A stretch of DNA of 64,000 nucleotides, taken from positions 1,372 to 65,371 of the forward strand of contig CACEJE010000004.1 of NCBI GenBank assembly GCA_902559815.1. Direction: 5' to 3'. The position numbers and the translations under genes are program-made. Of this stretch, positions 2,887-45,833 are shown piece by piece. Origin of the DNA: an uncultured Thiothrix sp. Its GTDB lineage: Bacteria > Pseudomonadota > Gammaproteobacteria > Poriferisulfidales > GCA-002705445. Every line of letters starts with the position of its first letter. Positions within the stretch are counted from its first letter, which is position 1. The notes beneath the pieces are model-generated. The model made no database searches. It was not told the DNA's origin and was given only the letters and a program-made list of their open reading frames with translations.

Positions 2887-3764
2887 TGAATAATTATAGA
2901 CAAAGTTGTTTATTATTAAATAAACCCTCTGGTATATCTTCAAATGAGGTTTTAACGAAGGTAAAGAAAAAAATAAATCAAAAAAAAGCTGGCTTTTCGG
3001 GAACATTAGATCCGTTAGCAAGTGGTTTATTAATAATATTTTTTAATAAAGCCACAAAGCTCTGTTCATTTTTTTTAAATTCTAGTAAAAGTTATGAGGC
3101 TGTTATTAAACTTGGCCTTACGTCATCTACAGGTGACTTAGATGGTAAAATTAAAACAACGAATATTACACCCAATCTTAAAAATTTGAACACAATAGAA
3201 AAAAAATATTTAGGTGAAGTTTTTCAAGTGCCTCCAATGTATTCTGCTCTTAAGTATAAAGGTGTTCGTTTATACGAATACGCTAGAAAAGGAATTAGTA
3301 TTGATAGAAAGCCCAGAAAAATTGTAATACATGATTTAAAGTTATCAGTACTTAATGATAAAGAATTATTTTTACAAGTTAAATGCTCAAAAGGTACATA
3401 CATAAGAACTTTAGCAGAACAAATTGGCAAAGATCTTGGTTCGGGTGGGACTGTAGCAAAACTAACACGAACAAGTATAAACGATGTAAGTTTAGATAAT
3501 TCTATTGAATTAGAAAAATTTTTAAATAGTTCAGAAGAAGAAATATTTCATAAATATATGATTAATGTAGATCAATTATTAATTGATACAAAATCGTATT
3601 ATTTGTCTGATTACGATGTGCCAAAGATACTAAATGGAAATTCAATAAAAACTGAGGAAAAACCATTAAATATTGTAAAAATGTATGATAAGAACAATGT
3701 ATTTCTTGGTATCGGCGAAATTAATGAAAATTATGAGCTTTTACCTAGAAAAATCTTAATTTAA
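2886..3764 (+). CDS. truB: tRNA pseudouridine(55) synthase
   Basis: 292 aa with the TruB signature GTLDPLASGLL (catalytic Asp), plus PPMYSALKYKG and KGTYIRTL. The start overlaps the rbfA stop. Confidence 0.93.
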   Translation: MNNYRQSCLLLNKPSGISSNEVLTKVKKKINQKKAGFSGTLDPLASGLLIIFFNKATKLCSFFLNSSKSYEAVIKLGLTSSTGDLDGKIKTTNITPNLKNLNTIEKKYLGEVFQVPPMYSALKYKGVRLYEYARKGISIDRKPRKIVIHDLKLSVLNDKELFLQVKCSKGTYIRTLAEQIGKDLGSGGTVAKLTRTSINDVSLDNSIELEKFLNSSEEEIFHKYMINVDQLLIDTKSYYLSDYDVPKILNGNSIKTEEKPLNIVKMYDKNNVFLGIGEINENYELLPRKILI

Positions 3765-3774
3765 AAGTTAATGT

Positions 3775-3802
3775 TTGTATGATTAATATATCGTGATAGA
3801 AT
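3775..3802 (+). promoter_or_regulatory. candidate sigma70 promoter of rpsO
   Basis: TTGTAT, 16-nt spacer, then TG-n-TAGAAT (extended -10), 36 nt upstream of the rpsO ATG. This is a consensus match only, and chance hits are likely in an AT-rich background. Confidence 0.3.
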
Positions 3803-3837
3803 GCGGCCTTGTAAATAAGAAACTAAGTGAAGAAAAT

Positions 3838-4107
3838 ATGGCATTATCTACTGAAGAAAAAAGTAAAGTTATAAAGGAATATCAAAAAGGAGATACAGAT
3901 ACTGGGTCTCCTGAAATTCAAATAGCATTATTATCAAAAAGGATTGATTTTCTTAGTGAGCATTTTAGTGTTCATAAAAAGGACCATCATTCAAGACATG
4001 GCTTGTTAAAGATGGTGAATACTAGAAGAAAACTTCTTGATTATTTAAAGAAAAAAAGCGCAGAAAGATATCAAACAATAATCTCTTCTTTAGGATTAAG
4101 AAGATAA
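3838..4107 (+). CDS. rpsO: 30S ribosomal protein S15
   Basis: The 89-aa product [15 protein letters not shown]...[21 protein letters not shown] is a full-length S15. The ORF-track start at 3793 is an upstream over-extension. Confidence 0.95.
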
Positions 4108-4121
4108 ACTAAGAGAAAAAA

Positions 4122-6197
4122 ATGAAACCAATAAAAAGAAATTTCCAGTATGGAAAACACGAAGTAATAATTGAAACAGGAAAGATTGCAAGACAGGCTA
4201 ATGCGGCGGTTATCGTAAACATAGAAGGAACTGTTGTATTAACAACAGTAGTTGCTAAAAATGACGGACAGGCAAGAGATTTTTTTCCTCTAACAGTAAA
4301 TTATCAAGAAAAAACATATGCTGCAGGAAAAATTCCAGGAGGATATTTTAAAAGAGAAGGAAGACCTGCAGAAAAAGAAACTCTAATATCAAGATTAATT
4401 GATAGACCTCTTAGACCATTATTTCCAAAAGAGTTCACTCATGAAGTTCAGGTTATATGTACCGTTATGAGTCTTAATAGTGAGATTGACGCAGATGTTG
4501 CGTCTTTAATTGGAGCATCAGCAGCATTAACAATTTCTGGTGTACCTTTTCAAGGCCCATTAGGAGCAGCTAGAGTTGGATATAAAGATGGTTCTTATAT
4601 TTTAAATCCAACAAAAGCTGAATTATTAACTTCAGAATTAGATTTAATGGTTGCCGGAACAAAAGACGGTGTCCTTATGGTTGAATCAGAAGCAAAAATG
4701 TTAAGTGAAGATATTATGCTCGGTGCTGTTTCATTTGGGCATAGTGAAATGCAAACTTTAATTGATGAAATTAATAACTTTGCAAATGAATTCGGTGTTA
4801 AAAATTATGAATGGGAAAAACCTATAAATGAAAATGAAAATCTAGAAACAGAAATTTCAAAAAAATATACCGATATTATAACAGAAGCATATTTAATCTC
4901 TGATAAAGCAGAGAGAAATATAAAGCTATCAGAAATTAAGAATAGTGCTATTGAATCATTTGATGATGAACAAGACTCAAAGAAAGATTGTATAGAAAAT
5001 ACTATATATAAGTTACAAAAAGAAATTGTAAGAAAAAATATTATCTCAGGAAAACCGAGGATTGATGGAAGAGATAATAAAACGGTTAGAGACATAAGTA
5101 TTGAAATTGGTATTTTACCTAAAACCCATGGAAGTGCGTTGTTTACAAGAGGCGAAACACAAGCAATAGTTGTTGCAACCCTTGGAACAGATAGAGATGG
5201 TCAAATTATAGATGCAATTGACGGGAAATATGAAGATAAATTTATGCTGCATTATAATTTCCCTCCTTACTCAGTTGGAGAGACAGGTTTTGTTGGCTCG
5301 CCAAAACGAAGAGAAATTGGTCATGGAAAGCTTGCTAAAAGAGCAATTGCTCCTGTCTTGCCATCAACAGATGATTTTCCTTATGTTATTAGAGTTGTTT
5401 CTGAAATTACAGAATCTAATGGTTCAAGCTCTATGGCAAGTGTTTGTGGATCCAGTTTATCACTTATGGATGCTGGTGTTCCAATTGCAAACCCAGTTGC
5501 TGGAATTGCAATGGGATTAATCAAAGAAGACAAAGACTATGTGGTTCTCTCTGACATACTTGGAGATGAGGATCATTTGGGTGATATGGATTTTAAAGTT
5601 GCTGGAACAAGCGATGGAGTAACTGCACTTCAAATGGATATTAAAATTAATGGTATAACTGAAGAAATAATGAAAATTGCATTAGCGCAAGCAAGAGATG
5701 GAAGGATACATATTTTAGGTGAAATGGCAAAAGTTATTGAATCTTCAAGAGAAGAAGTGTCTATTAATGCACCAAGATTTATTACTATTCAAGTAAAATC
5801 TGATAAGGTTAGAGACGTTATAGGAAAAGGTGGGGCGACAATTAGGGCGTTAACAGAAGAAACAGGAGCAATGATAGATATAGATGATAGCGGCTTAATA
5901 AAAATTTCTTCAGTTGATAAAGCTGCTGCAGAATTAGCAAAATCAAAGATAGAAAATCTTACCGCAGATGTTGAGGTTGATAAAATTTATGAGGGAAAAG
6001 TTGCAAAGATTATGGACTTTGGTGCTTTTGTAACGGTTTTACCGGGCAAAGATGGACTAGTGCATATCTCACAAATTTGTGAAGAAAGAGTAGAGAATGT
6101 TTCTGATAAAGTTAATGAAGGAGATATAGTTAAAGTCAAGGTGCTTGAAATTGATAAGCAAGGACGCATTAAATTAACCATGAAAGGAATAGAGTAG
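4122..6197 (+). CDS. pnp: polyribonucleotide nucleotidyltransferase (PNPase)
   Basis: 691 aa with two RNase PH-like domains ([11 protein letters not shown]), a KH domain ([15 protein letters not shown]) and an S1 domain ([28 protein letters not shown]). It follows rpsO as in other gammaproteobacteria. Confidence 0.97.
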
Positions 6198-6210
6198 TAT
6201 AGTCATTTTT

Positions 6211-6585
6211 ATGGGAGATGATTGGAAAAAATTGTTAACTGATGAAGAGTTTATAGTATGTAGAAAAAAGGGTACTGAACAGCCCTTTACTGGAAAATAT
6301 AATAAGTTTTACGAAAAAGGTACATACTTGTGCAAGTGCTGCGAAACAATTCTTTTTAACTCTGACACAAAATTTGATTCAGGTTCTGGCTGGCCAAGTT
6401 TTACTGAATCAGCACAAGAAAAAAATATCAAGTATATTCAAGATAATACACTGGGCATGAGCAGGATAGAAGTTCAATGCTCAAACTGTAACAGTCATTT
6501 AGGCCATGTTTTTAATGATGGCCCTGCACCAACATACAAAAGATATTGTATTAATTCATTAAGTTTGACCTTTAAAAAACTCTAA
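6211..6585 (+). CDS. msrB: peptide-methionine (R)-S-oxide reductase
   Basis: 124-aa SelR/MsrB domain with two CxxC zinc pairs (CKCC, CSNC), GWPSF, and the catalytic Cys in RYCINS. Confidence 0.93.
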   Translation: MGDDWKKLLTDEEFIVCRKKGTEQPFTGKYNKFYEKGTYLCKCCETILFNSDTKFDSGSGWPSFTESAQEKNIKYIQDNTLGMSRIEVQCSNCNSHLGHVFNDGPAPTYKRYCINSLSLTFKKL

Positions 6586-6676
6586 TTCTAGAACAATATA
6601 TTCTCCTATAAAGACTTTGCAGTGGTAGGTTTTTTGGGTAAAATAGGGGACGAAGATTAAATATGAGGAGAAAGAT

Positions 6677-6853
6677 ATGAAAGTATCATGGGATGAAAGT
6701 GTATGTATACACGCAGGTAAATGTGTACAAGGAGCACCAGAAGTATTTAAAATTGAGGATGGTAAATTTGTTATTGATACATCAGCTGCCTCTGAAGATA
6801 AGATTGCAGATGTAGTAGCAGAATGCCCATCTGGAGCTTTAAAAATAGAATAA
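6677..6853 (+). CDS. small divergent 4Fe-4S mono-cluster-type protein (DUF1271-like), 58 aa
   Basis: Not in the ORF track (below the size cut-off). ATG 6677 is preceded by GAGGAGAAAG. The product is MKVSWDESVCIHAGKCVQGAPEVFKIEDGKFVIDTSAASEDKIADVVAECPSGALKIE, with a C-x-H-x3-C ... C-P ligand pattern. It matches my recollection of the short '(4Fe-4S)-binding' proteins. Confidence 0.6.
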   Translation: MKVSWDESVCIHAGKCVQGAPEVFKIEDGKFVIDTSAASEDKIADVVAECPSGALKIE

Positions 6854-25852: not shown

Positions 25853-26188
25853 ATGAGTCAGACATATAAAATAATTTATTTTAATCATAATTCAGTATAT
25901 GAAATATACTCGAAGGAAGTATATCAATCAGATATGTATGGTTTCGTTGTGGTAGAAGATTTGGTTTTTGGAAAAAATACAAGTCTTGTAGTTGATCCAA
26001 GTGAAGAAAAATTGAAAACTGAATTCGCTAACGTAAAAAGATTTTTTATTCCTTCTCATAATGTTATACGAATAGATGAAGTTGACAAAGAGGGTGTAGC
26101 AAAAATTACATCTACAGATGGTAATGTAAAACAATTTCCTTCAGGTAATTTTACGATTCCACCCAATACAAATAACACAGAAAGTTAA
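25853..26188 (+). CDS. DUF1820-family protein
   Basis: 111 aa. YKIIYFNHNSVYEIY...YGFVVVEDLVFG...SLVVDPSEEKLKTEF.NVKR.FIP.H.VIRIDEV.KEG matches my recollection of the conserved DUF1820 pattern. Confidence 0.55.
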   Translation: MSQTYKIIYFNHNSVYEIYSKEVYQSDMYGFVVVEDLVFGKNTSLVVDPSEEKLKTEFANVKRFFIPSHNVIRIDEVDKEGVAKITSTDGNVKQFPSGNFTIPPNTNNTES

Positions 26189-26234: not shown

Positions 26235-26324
26235 GGAGAGGTGTCAGAGTGGTCTATTGTGCTACCTTGGAAAGGTGGTGTTGAGTAAAATCAACCGTGG
26301 GTTCGAATCCCTCCCTCTCCGCCA
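26235..26324 (+). tRNA. tRNA-Ser (anticodon GGA)
   Basis: 90 nt. Acceptor GGAGAGG/CCTCTCC, anticodon stem CTACC/GGTGG with loop TTGGAAA, a long variable arm (GTTGA-GTAAAA-TCAAC), T-loop TTCGAAT and an encoded CCA. There is one U-U mismatch each in the D and T stems. Confidence 0.87.
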
Positions 26325-26336
26325 TTTTAAAATCTT

Positions 26337-26364
26337 TTGATAACATAAACTTATTTATTATATT
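26337..26364 (+). promoter_or_regulatory. candidate sigma70 promoter of the islet operon
   Basis: TTGATA, 16 nt, then TATATT, 30 nt upstream of ATG 26395. This is a consensus match only in AT-rich DNA. Confidence 0.25.
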
Positions 26365-26394
26365 TTACATACTTCTTCATGATATATTTAATTT

Positions 26395-26829
26395 ATGAAA
26401 AATGATTTGAGAGATGAGTTGGTCAAACTGTCTTTGGAATGGCAAAAACTCTATGGTGTTGCTCCCCACATAACCACGGTTATTTCGGAATATGATGCTG
26501 CAATGTTACTAGGAATGCCCGAAGAAGAATATTCTTTTTATATGCAGGATAAAACTGCGGTTTCGAAAGGTTCTGATTTTGAATATAACGGAAAAAGATA
26601 TCAGATTAAAGCAAATCGTCCAAGTGGAAAACCAGGTAGCAAGGTTACGATAGTTGCTAAAGCATCTAATTACGATTGGGATTATCTTATATGGGTTCTT
26701 TATAATAAGGAATATATAATGCAGGAAGCATGGGTCTGGGGGAGAGAAGAATATATAAAAGAGTTTGACACTAAAAAAAGGATTTCACCAGAAGACTATA
26801 GAAGAGGAACCAAACTAGAAAAACCGTAA
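26395..26829 (+). CDS. hypothetical protein, possible PD-(D/E)xK nuclease fold
   Basis: 144-aa ORF with acidic and Lys residues spaced as SEYDAA ... GSDFEY ... YQIKA (E...D...QxK). No family is recognised with certainty. It lies 6 nt upstream of the EEP gene. Confidence 0.45.
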   Translation: MKNDLRDELVKLSLEWQKLYGVAPHITTVISEYDAAMLLGMPEEEYSFYMQDKTAVSKGSDFEYNGKRYQIKANRPSGKPGSKVTIVAKASNYDWDYLIWVLYNKEYIMQEAWVWGREEYIKEFDTKKRISPEDYRRGTKLEKP

Positions 26830-26835
26830 ATTCAA

Positions 26836-27510
26836 ATGATTATTACAACCTGGAACTGTAATCTAAAACTTAAGAGTAAATATGAGTGTATAGAATCACT
26901 AGATTCCGATATTTTAATTATTCAAGAATGCGAAAAACTCAAACAAGATTATTTTCCTAGCACTCAGTATTATTGGACTGGCAGAGATGAAAATAAAGGT
27001 CTTGGGGTATTAGTTAAAAAAGATACTGCAAATATTTGTAAATTACATAATCCAAATTTCATATACTTTCTTCCTATAGAAACAGATAATTTAAATATTA
27101 TGGGTGTCTGGGCATTTAATCATAGGGCAGTTAAGTATGGTGATAATGCAAACGGTAGAACACTGGACGCAATTAATTATTATGATGGTTGGTTAAAAGA
27201 TTCTCAAAAATCAATATTTGCTGGTGATTTTAATAACTCTATTATTTGGGATAGAAAAAGTAATCCAAGTTTTAGAAATATTAATAATGAATTGAGTCTC
27301 TTAGGTTATGAGAGTTCTTATCATAAACAAACTCAAGATCAATTTGGGAAAGAGGAAGAAACTACTTTCTATCATACTAAAAAAGAAGATAAGAAATATC
27401 ATATTGATTACATATACATAAAAAATATGAATATAAAATCTCTTAAAGTAGGATCATATGATAAATGGATAGAACATAGCGATCACTGCCCTGTATCAAT
27501 TGAAGTCTGA
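26836..27510 (+). CDS. endonuclease/exonuclease/phosphatase (EEP) family protein
   Basis: 224 aa with the full ExoIII-like motif set in order: ITTWNCN, ILIIQECE, FAGDFNNS, HIDYIYI and HSDHCPVSIEV. No signal peptide. Confidence 0.8.
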   Translation: MIITTWNCNLKLKSKYECIESLDSDILIIQECEKLKQDYFPSTQYYWTGRDENKGLGVLVKKDTANICKLHNPNFIYFLPIETDNLNIMGVWAFNHRAVKYGDNANGRTLDAINYYDGWLKDSQKSIFAGDFNNSIIWDRKSNPSFRNINNELSLLGYESSYHKQTQDQFGKEEETTFYHTKKEDKKYHIDYIYIKNMNIKSLKVGSYDKWIEHSDHCPVSIEV

Positions 27511-27517
27511 GTTACCT

Positions 27518-27537
27518 GTCATACACTAGTCATACAC
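27518..27537 (+). repeat. tandem direct repeat GTCATACAC-TA-GTCATACAC
   Basis: Two exact 9-mers separated by 2 nt. They lie 8 nt after the EEP stop and 44 nt before the tRNA 3'-end copy. Confidence 0.6.
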
Positions 27538-27580
27538 TTTTTAAGGAATCAAGGTATACTTACATTTTAGGGTGATGGAA

Positions 27581-27605
27581 TGGATTCGAATCCCTCCCTC
27601 TCCGC
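27581..27605 (+). repeat. direct-repeat copy of the tRNA-Ser(GGA) 3' end (att-like scar)
   Basis: TGGATTCGAATCCCTCCCTCTCCGC versus tRNA 26298-26322 TGGGTTCGAATCCCTCCCTCTCCGC, one mismatch. The preceding GGTGATGGAA loosely resembles the anticodon-stem 3' strand. There is no 5' half and no CCA. Confidence 0.8.
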
Positions 27606-27641: not shown

Positions 27642-28106
27642 ATGGATAAAAATAAAATAAAATTACAAAAATCAATTAGAAGTACTTTAGCAAAACAAGC
27701 TGTCGATTTTTTAGTTCCATTCATAAGTTCTGTGATTAACTTATTAACTGACAAAGATTTATCATTAAGAGAAGTTAAAATTAATTTAAAAAAATTAAGA
27801 ATCACAAATATAGAGACAAAAGGCCAGCAAATTGAGGTGCAGTCAAAAATTTTAGATTTTCAAATATATATATTATATGTAGGGGTAAGAAATTATATAT
27901 TTAAAGTTGAAGGTTTAGATCACTATGCTGGATTTTCTTTCATGGAAACCAATAAAGGCATGATTGTTCATGACAATATTGTTGATGATTCAAAATTATT
28001 AGCTAAAGATTTAAAAGTATTATTCTCAAAAAATTATAAAAGCCCATATCCTGTTACTGATATATTTTTGGATTTTATAAATTCAAAATCACCATTAAAT
28101 AAATAG
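27642..28106 (+). CDS. hypothetical protein
   Basis: 154-aa ORF with no recognisable motif. It lies 8 nt upstream of the AEC transporter gene, so it is probably co-transcribed. Confidence 0.55.
   Translation: MDKNKIKLQKSIRSTLAKQAVDFLVPFISSVINLLTDKDLSLREVKINLKKLRITNIETKGQQIEVQSKILDFQIYILYVGVRNYIFKVEGLDHYAGFSFMETNKGMIVHDNIVDDSKLLAKDLKVLFSKNYKSPYPVTDIFLDFINSKSPLNK

Positions 28107-45745: not shown

Positions 45746-45833
<88 letters not shown>

Follow-up and report, generated by a model that had tools for sequence, protein, structure and literature searches.

Cis-mobilisable elements (CIMEs) carry no integrase and are flanked by the attachment (att) sites of integrative and conjugative elements (ICEs) or integrative and mobilisable elements (IMEs), as described for ICESt of Streptococcus thermophilus, and they are usually decay products of ICEs and found singly. 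Additive tRNA islands and tycheposons occur in marine and freshwater bacteria, Gammaproteobacteria included (10.1101/2020.12.28.424599; PMC10872708). In Prochlorococcus, elements of the tycheposon type combine a tyrosine recombinase with a small serine recombinase and use seven tRNA targets (10.1101/2020.12.28.424599), and the additive flexible genomic island (fGI) of Methylophilaceae contains recurring tRNA-Lys 3' repeats (PMC10872708). Among nucleases, the BisI family has a PD-QxK site (AD, QIK and a helix Glu) and forms homodimers that cut DNA carrying 5-methylcytosine or 5-hydroxymethylcytosine with no partner protein (PMC11347163). Here, we examine a 64,000-nucleotide stretch of DNA from an uncultured Thiothrix sp. 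(assembly GCA_902559815.1, contig CACEJE010000004.1, positions 1,372 to 65,371), hereafter the window. We propose that its positions 26325-27605 are probably a small integrase-less cassette that occupies an additive island, a tRNA-Ser(GGA) hotspot, in a marine gammaproteobacterium of low GC, mobile in trans and with cargo that is a mosaic rather than a system.

The features of the islet and its flanks are given below, where ORF stands for open reading frame and labels such as L018 denote the retrieved genome loci and metagenome contigs that were compared with the window.

25853-26188, plus strand: DUF1820 core gene (Pfam DUF1820, E 4e-39), proximal chromosomal flank of the hotspot
26235-26324, plus strand: intact tRNA-Ser(GGA), integration target and attL side (ARAGORN; Rfam tRNA, 45.6 bits)
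26298-26322, plus strand: direct repeat copy 1, TGGGTTCGAATCCCTCCCTCTCCGC, spanning the T-loop (TTCGAAT, 26302-26308), T-stem and acceptor 3' strand
26325-26365, plus strand: conserved post-tRNA segment (similarity to L018), either cassette left arm or conserved backbone
26395-26829, plus strand: ORF-A, 144 aa, distantly BisI-family-like PD-QxK nuclease, putative modification-dependent restriction endonuclease
26819-26833, no strand: 15-nt recombination joint between the ORF-A and ORF-B segments (similarity breakpoints)
26836-27510, plus strand: ORF-B, 224 aa, endonuclease/exonuclease/phosphatase (EEP) family (Pfam PF03372, full catalytic motif set)
27514-27605, plus strand: 92-nt attachment element (attR), an arm of ~65 nt plus a core of tRNA T-loop and 3' end (nhmmer profile)
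27518-27538, plus strand: two tandem GTCATACACT repeats (TGTCAKACAC motif), putative arm-type integrase binding sites
27581-27605, plus strand: direct repeat copy 2, TGGATTCGAATCCCTCCCTCTCCGC, displaced tRNA 3' end, 24/25 identical to 26298-26322
27642-28106, plus strand: conserved 154-aa ORF (homologues in relatives), distal chromosomal flank where cassette arrays end

A preliminary description of this DNA had presented the islet as two nuclease genes bracketed by a tRNA and a copy of its end, and its account of the layout was accurate. ARAGORN, Rfam and alignment agree that between tRNA-Ser(GGA) and a copy of its 3' end with 24/25 identity lie exactly two ORFs, on one strand and 6 nt apart (26395-26829; 26836-27510), neither of which is a recombinase. 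The match between the repeat copies has one mismatch and stops at 25 nt on both sides. Its derivation from the GGA gene is confirmed by allele-specific sequence, the downstream copy having the GGA version CCCTCCCTCTCC and not the CCCTCACTCTCC of tRNA-Ser(UGA) (gene at 45746, variant at 45811). The 25-nt pattern occurs twice in the whole window, at these two places, and the arm sequence ACCTGTCATACACTAGTCATACAC adjoining copy 2 occurs once (0 matches in 100 shuffles). A chance or dispersed motif was rejected on this uniqueness, on the absence of any expected chance occurrence and on a core that equals the local tRNA allele. The arrangement is real, since positions 26259-27423 recur in collinear form, at ~98% identity (97.6-98.1%), in three metagenome contigs that are independent of one another, and these contigs likewise rule out an assembly artefact or chimera at the joint between ORF-A and the EEP gene. 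A TTGATA-16-TATATT promoter-like site lies at 26337-26364, and such sites, this one included, are no more frequent in the islet region than expected by chance; a search of the same region for an intrinsic terminator gave none.

The preliminary description read the displaced tRNA 3' end as the scar of an integration. Insertion stands, but the copy is a mere tail of a conserved 92-nt site that had been missed. This element of ~92 nt, which lies downstream of the EEP gene in the window, is common to the window, L018 and metagenome contigs L007-L011, with the consensus ACCTGTCAKACACTWGTCAKACACTTTTT...GGTATACTTGAYTTGTAGAGG...GAATGGATTCGAAT followed by the tRNA 3' end. The window copy (27514-27605) is full length (profile positions 1-92 of 94, E 2e-22) and unique within the window. 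In all, 105 copies were detected with the nhmmer profile across 65 loci, namely the window, L018 and a further 63 marine contigs; they lie on a single strand per locus, at most four per contig and at cassette ends. The exact 28-nt arm pattern is present in 58 marine metagenome contigs, and the att pattern was found in none of the IMG/VR contigs. In the gene maps, cassettes of 1-4 ORFs are each closed by one element, with which 110 of 117 complete ORFs are co-oriented. The median distance is 32 nt from stop codon to element and 897 bp from element to element; in 16 of 74 cases the next start codon comes no more than 20 nt after the element. Arrays start at tRNA-Ser(GGA) and in many contigs stop before the 154-aa ORF and dnaX.

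The composition of the elements indicates where recombination would take place. In several loci the sequence after the T-loop is that of the local tRNA-Ser(GGA) allele (CCCTCCCTCTCC, CCCTTACCTACCT or CTCCCTCTCTCC), whereas the sequence before it, GAATGGATTCGAAT, is specific to the element, which would put the crossover at or just 3' of TTCGAAT. Foreign-allele cores are found inside single arrays (L147, L148), and the window's own cassette (~98% identity) lies in L170 beside a different tRNA-Ser(GGA) allele, behind which the post-tRNA segment 26325-26365 is also present; the foreign cores and the L170 cassette point to movement between hosts. As candidates for a structured or known RNA, positions 27514-27605 gave no Rfam match except tRNA. 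An attC-like hairpin was also sought, and folding z-scores of +0.9 to -0.5 for two elements and of -1.2 and -2.8 for the two strands of L116 give no consistent signal; hence, with no significant folding, the element is not attC-like.

The upstream DUF1820 gene, whose synteny with icd and tRNA-Ser is kept in L017-L021, served as the anchor for retrieving 80 genome loci for comparison. One of these, L019 (metagenome-assembled genome LRMED-300), has an empty site: the orthologous tRNA-Ser(GGA), then 27 nt, then the homologue of the 154-aa ORF. The preliminary description had pictured an islet without an integrase, inserted at the attachment site of a tRNA, and this is supported; it had also suggested looking in relatives for the tRNA directly before this ORF, which is what L019 shows. 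At the same place L017 carries a DoxX-like gene, and L018 an unrelated 295-aa ORF followed by the same 92-nt element; neither ORF-A nor EEP is present in any of the 80 loci. A tRNA 3'-end direct repeat, an empty site in relatives and a core equal to the local tRNA allele, the features that distinguish an attL/attR pair, were thus all found. Homologues of the 154-aa ORF stand directly behind the last att element in L007, L008, L018, L111, L123, L132 and L142. In every relative, the one with the empty site included, the hotspot has a conserved protein of ~150 aa at its distal edge, and the 154-aa ORF has no Pfam, PADLOC or NCBIfam match. In L016 (region 4585-6805), whose DUF1820 is the closest among the genome relatives (90% identity), a 697-aa ORF lies between DUF1820 and a tRNA-Ser fragment at the contig end, so the proximal flank of the hotspot is variable too; from inspection by eye, we take this ORF to be TonB-dependent-receptor-like. 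The UGA and GGA tRNA-Ser genes are ~1.3-1.5 kb apart in L160 and L131 versus ~19 kb in the window (UGA gene 45746-45833).

What might move such cassettes? The gene for a 414-aa protein, here called Int414, ends directly against the att element in L009, L101, L120, L160, L163 and L164. Contig L009, which has four cassettes, starts with the C-terminal part of this protein, and a small serine recombinase accompanies it in L160, L161, L101, L163 and L164. Int414 has no Pfam domain, a set of 5.8 billion protein clusters contains only 12 that are close to it, and it was not found in IMG/VR. An exhaustive HMMER profile search gave 393 relatives. Across an alignment of 53 family members R239, K272, R354 and Y386 are invariant and H355 nearly so, and a Pfam scan of these members assigns 19 of the 53 to Phage_integrase (PF00589, best 2e-13) and 25 to Phage_int_SAM_5; an hhalign comparison of Int414 with one Bacteroidetes integrase gave 0.15% probability. 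Because of the invariant R-K-R-Y and the relatives matching these two domains, Int414 is classified, by transitive homology and on sequence grounds, as a divergent tyrosine integrase.

The elements bearing Int414 have an organisation of their own. In L160, the integrated autonomous element is preceded by a host tRNA that breaks off at the T-loop; there follow an arm in which TGTCACACAC occurs three times, a complete element-borne tRNA-Ser(GGA), ~6 kb of small ORFs, a resolvase, Int, an element with the tRNA 3' end and further cassettes (a MORN protein, then HsdM). Since the host tRNA stays incomplete, the autonomous element replaces rather than repairs it. L164 and L120 show a joined arm-core-arm-tRNA configuration, and beside the integrase gene of L120, L160 and L164 the core has 2-4 copies of TGTCAKACAC on either side. 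From the constant adjacency of integrase gene and element we infer that Int414 acts on the 92-nt sites, with the 10-nt repeats as its putative arm sites. No replication genes were recognised on the integrase-bearing elements. The element-borne tRNA-Ser(GGA) is complete and follows three or four TGTCAKACAC repeats; the tRNA and repeat regions of these elements are at:

L160, 4721-5026 and 12456-12763
L164, 2671-2991
L120 (oriented), 1554-1879
L150, 1739-2012

We therefore favour, as a working mechanism, a unit whose left boundary is the tRNA and whose right boundary is the 92-nt site (an arm of ~65 nt with two GTCATACACT repeats, then the tRNA T-loop and 3' end). Cassettes would enter by site-specific insertion with the crossover at or just after the T-loop TTCGAAT, and each insertion would regenerate the tRNA and displace the earlier 3' end downstream. 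The recombinase is likely to be Int414, borne on elements of ~6.5 kb together with the small serine recombinase and their own tRNA-Ser(GGA). Because Int414 is not in the window, the window cassette would be moved in trans, by Int414 supplied from elsewhere.

The preliminary description had offered decay and mobilisation in trans as alternatives, and it is mobilisation in trans that fits best; decay is disfavoured by the full-length att element. An islet that is the dead remnant of a larger integrative element, its integrase lost by deletion, would be a fixed and immobile scar, and this we consider unlikely. The lack of an integrase in islet and window, internal joints showing deletion and replacement, and truncated att copies in other arrays are what it would lead one to expect. 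It does not fit the full-length window att element, the recurrence of cargo plus an intact site without an integrase in dozens of cassettes, the presence of the same cassette beside two different tRNA-Ser alleles, or the foreign-allele cores inside the single arrays of L147 and L148.

Another possibility is that cargo is swapped mainly by homologous recombination between the flanks (the tRNA plus 41 nt on one side, the att element plus the 154-aa ORF on the other), which would make this a replacement-type island and the repeat an old scar. The flanks shared by the window and L018 are indeed conserved (94.7% and 80%) around unrelated cargo, and gene-sized replacement with breakpoints at the borders of ORF-A is of the kind that such exchange would produce. 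This account leaves unexplained, however, why a contig can have as many as four sites in tandem, the strict co-orientation, the dedicated integrase beside the sites and the core that follows the local tRNA allele, and as the main route we judge it distinctly unlikely. The two processes are not mutually exclusive, and site-specific insertion in trans remains our preferred explanation of the arrays.

The cargo itself is composite. Three parts of the islet are each most readily traced to a different source:

26235-26365: 94.7% identity to L018 (10395-10525, tRNA included)
26394-26818: 95.3% identity to the ORF-A cassette of L155
26834-27554: 98.6% identity to the EEP cassette of L154

Similarity to the EEP cassette of L009, like that to L154, begins at 26834, so that breakpoints fall at 26394, 26818 and 26834, with a 15-nt joint between the ORF-A and EEP segments. 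Codon usage divides at the same place: ORF-A has the highest GC content at third codon positions (GC3) of the 60 window ORFs (0.292, z +3.4) and the lowest codon log-likelihood of the 60, whereas EEP is native-like (GC3 0.188, z -0.1). The remark, made by eye, that the 144-aa gene prefers G/C-ending codons was correct; for the islet as a whole the deviation holds for the GC3 and codon usage of ORF-A, but neither bulk GC nor EEP departs from the surroundings.

The EEP gene has a different history. It scores 35.9 bits against Pfam PF03372 (Exo_endo_phos; gathering cutoff 24.5), which bears out the family proposed for the 224-aa protein. It has the complete catalytic N/E/D/N/D/D-H set (TWN, QE, GDFN, DYI, SDH) and is not an xth equivalog (NCBIfam TIGR00633, 26.4 bits versus a cutoff of 99). 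Its closest homologues (84-99% identity) have a DUF6994 gene before them and sometimes an extra 248-aa gene; DUF6994 partners occur in L007-L011, L153 and L154, and DUF6994 is absent from the window. Pfam curators predict DUF6994 to be HNH/type IV-restriction-like (PMC11701544). Because the segments are separately traceable and the codon usage is split between them, we conclude that ORF-A replaced DUF6994 before EEP in one lineage. Judged by sequence comparison, EEP is the surviving last gene of a DUF6994-EEP cassette, with ORF-A in place of the first gene in a single cassette lineage, and the cargo is a mosaic, not a system; any role that we give EEP is an inferred one. In L009, an EEP 3'-end remnant (5077-5140) lies just upstream of the att element that now closes an unrelated type IIG/helicase cassette, which suggests that cargo was replaced there in front of a retained EEP-att end. 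EEP of 57% identity is found without DUF6994 in L165-L169, as a lone plus-strand gene amid small minus-strand ORFs and beside a PDDEXK_4 protein, in what is another flexible region of a different marine lineage.

Do the two genes nevertheless form a genuine two-nuclease defence system, with a modification-sensing nuclease (ORF-A or DUF6994) and EEP as the common effector or processing partner? They share a strand and are 6 nt apart, three more assemblies, all independent, preserve this order at ~98% identity, and ORF-A holds the slot that relatives give to DUF6994, itself predicted to be HNH/type IV restriction-like (PMC11701544). The four occurrences are, however, one cassette lineage and so one event, and the adjacency was seen nowhere else among the contexts examined. 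ORF-A homologues occur in nine other contexts without an EEP neighbour, DUF6994 occurs without EEP (L108, L130, L139) and the 57%-identical EEP without DUF6994. The genes differ in codon usage, their junction is the 15-nt joint of two separately traceable segments, and BisI-family enzymes act alone as homodimers (PMC11347163). PADLOC matches neither EEP nor DUF6994, lists no system of DUF6994 with EEP, and has no described system matched by both genes of the islet (ORF-A matches only mREase_II). A joint system is therefore improbable. The two-nuclease module of the preliminary description does not hold up against solitary ORF-A homologues, EEP paired with DUF6994, different codon usage and a recombination joint between the genes; across independent lineages the genes are not neighbours, being together in one ~98% lineage only, and what had been put forward as the window's best candidate for an undescribed system is, as a pair, a false lead.

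As a single gene, ORF-A is likely to be a distant BisI-family (NhoI/Eco15I) PD-QxK nuclease and, by its sequence and predicted fold, a methylation-dependent restriction enzyme. It matches PADLOC mREase_II (E 7.4e-6) and has no Pfam or NCBIfam match. The sole match of a 43-sequence profile in the Protein Data Bank (PDB) is Eco15I (E 0.03), with GSD...YQIK aligned to GAD...VQIK, and E32, D61, Q70 and K72 are invariant in the 43 homologues. For the AlphaFold2 model (pLDDT 90.4), the top 10 Foldseek matches in the PDB are all NhoI/Eco15I (E 3.5e-4 to 7e-3, probability ~1, TM 0.4-0.48), followed by PvuII and DpnI. The motifs quoted earlier are present in both proteins (SEYD at residue 31, GSDF at 59 and YQIK at 69 here; TWN, QE, GDFN, DYI and SDH in EEP), and the guess of a PD-(D/E)xK-type core for the 144-aa protein was sound, the invariant residues and Foldseek pointing to a PD-QxK core. 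The statement that no named system matched fails for ORF-A, in view of mREase_II and the BisI-family structures.

The ORF-A family consists of ~140-aa proteins in 713 database clusters, with homologues that are 65-75% identical across Spirochaetes, Verrucomicrobia and Bacteroidota and that are solitary in unrelated contexts. One match is a hypothetical protein on a Segatella copri plasmid, and the phage collection gave none. The nearest homologues (94-96% identity) have a NOV_C protein before them, a truncated element after them and no EEP. In L155, a 367-aa NOV_C (DUF3883-like) protein (475-1578) is separated from ORF-A by a 1-nt gap; it could be an alternative partner or mere neighbouring cargo. 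Between contexts, similarity extends from 1 nt before the ATG to ~10 nt before the stop codon, and ORF-A appears as a gene-sized mobile segment in the window (26394-26818), in L155 (1579-2003) and in L137. Most likely, ORF-A was recently acquired and is self-sufficient; it is predicted to cut modified (e.g. 5-methylcytosine) foreign DNA with no need of a methyltransferase.

Several observations weigh against the proposal of a trans-mobile cassette with mosaic cargo and a BisI-like nuclease. No excised circular form was observed, and the conserved flanks could also exchange their cargo by homologous recombination. The islet lacks every kind of integrase and the 64-kb window lacks Int414, so that mobility of the cassette in this genome at present is presumptive. 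Int414 itself had no match in Pfam, PHROGs, PDB sequence or PDB profile searches, and its AlphaFold2 model was poor (pLDDT 47) and was left unused. On the cargo, ORF-A stands in the exact slot of another type IV-like nuclease, DUF6994, in relatives, and the joint between ORF-A and EEP is kept in four assemblies, which would be compatible with a functional pairing. The likeness of ORF-A to the BisI family is distant (15-25% identity, TM 0.4-0.48, PDB profile E 0.03), and its dependence on modification is an extrapolation.

Elsewhere in the arrays, cargo includes a C5-methyltransferase with a TdeIII or HNH endonuclease, type IIG enzymes, helicases, HsdM and MORN proteins, and on this basis the hotspot carries many restriction/defence-type genes. 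C5-methyltransferases are among the cassettes of L148 and L152. The commonest cargo is a set of MORN-repeat proteins with signal peptides, which make up 21 of the 117 complete ORFs (Pfam MORN, E 1e-52; L096-L153). Examples are:

L096 (oriented), 3439-4134
L150, 286-1683
L160, 11481-12404

No role in defence is obvious for these proteins, which may be located at the surface or secreted and evolve under diversifying selection.

In light of these findings, the kind of element is known; it is set apart by the integron-like regularity, the 92-nt arm-plus-core site, the tRNA-replacing element and the Pfam-invisible integrase family. A wider interpretation, which we put forward tentatively and as possible rather than probable, is that the islet is one unit of an undescribed integron-like cassette platform in abundant low-GC marine Gammaproteobacteria, in which Int414 would take up and shuffle cassettes of 1-4 genes at the tRNA-Ser(GGA) T-loop through the 92-nt site. 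The cargo recorded to date comprises restriction-modification systems, nucleases of the HNH, BisI-like and DUF6994 types, helicases and MORN proteins that are secreted, and the autonomous element replaces the host tRNA. If so, it would be a second natural gene-cassette system beside integrons and mechanistically distinct from them. A regular tRNA-anchored cassette array with a dedicated, previously unannotated integrase family is in any case exposed in marine bacteria, in which gene transfer is poorly understood. If Int414 and the 92-nt site work as proposed, they would account for the swapping of defence and surface genes in streamlined genomes and would constitute a compact site-specific recombination pair. 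For ORF-A, a likely function, that of a BisI-like modification-dependent restriction endonuclease, can be assigned to a very conserved, widely transferred and previously unannotated family of ~140 aa.

How does the locus compare with known systems? As with additive islands and tycheposons, growth takes place beside a tRNA, partial tRNA copies lie between insertions, the hosts are streamlined marine bacteria, a tyrosine and a small serine recombinase are present, and defence genes are among the cargo. The units described here differ in being very small (median ~0.9 kb, 1-4 genes), mostly without an integrase and strictly co-oriented, and in sharing a conserved ~65-nt arm with tandem 10-nt repeats at their end. 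Moreover, the target, tRNA-Ser(GGA), is outside the seven Prochlorococcus targets of tycheposons, and the integrase element brings a complete tRNA-Ser while leaving the host copy truncated, with no replication module identified. Like CIMEs, the islet lies between attL and attR of a tRNA-type site, encodes no recombinase and presumably relies on the integrase of a related element for its mobilisation; unlike them, it belongs to a large cassette family in arrays. The evidence for mobilisation in trans is circumstantial: one cassette occurs beside two tRNA alleles, and in other loci the Int414 gene abuts identical sites.

The likeness to integrons lies in arrays of small, co-oriented, mostly single-gene cassettes that each end in a recombination site (~60-140 nt), in a tyrosine recombinase at the head of some arrays (L009, L160) and in new cassettes being expected beside the anchor. 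Here, however, the site is not a folded attC hairpin, its core consists of a T-loop and 3' end from a tRNA, a tRNA gene takes the place of attI as the anchor, and the integrase is co-directional with the cassettes, of arm-site type architecture and without a match to the IntI family. Like ExoIII and the EEP superfamily (PF03372), the window EEP has the full motif set and a Pfam score above gathering, and it differs from ExoIII in its shorter length (224 aa) and in falling below the xth cutoff. Finally, ORF-A resembles the BisI family as a small single-domain PD-QxK (Mrr-like) protein whose helix Glu, xD and QIK align with the AD and QIK of Eco15I, whose best structural matches are NhoI and Eco15I, and which would need no methyltransferase partner; it stands apart from that family at 15-25% identity and TM 0.4-0.48, unrecognised by Pfam and NCBIfam, and in a family of its own that is 65-75% identical across phyla.

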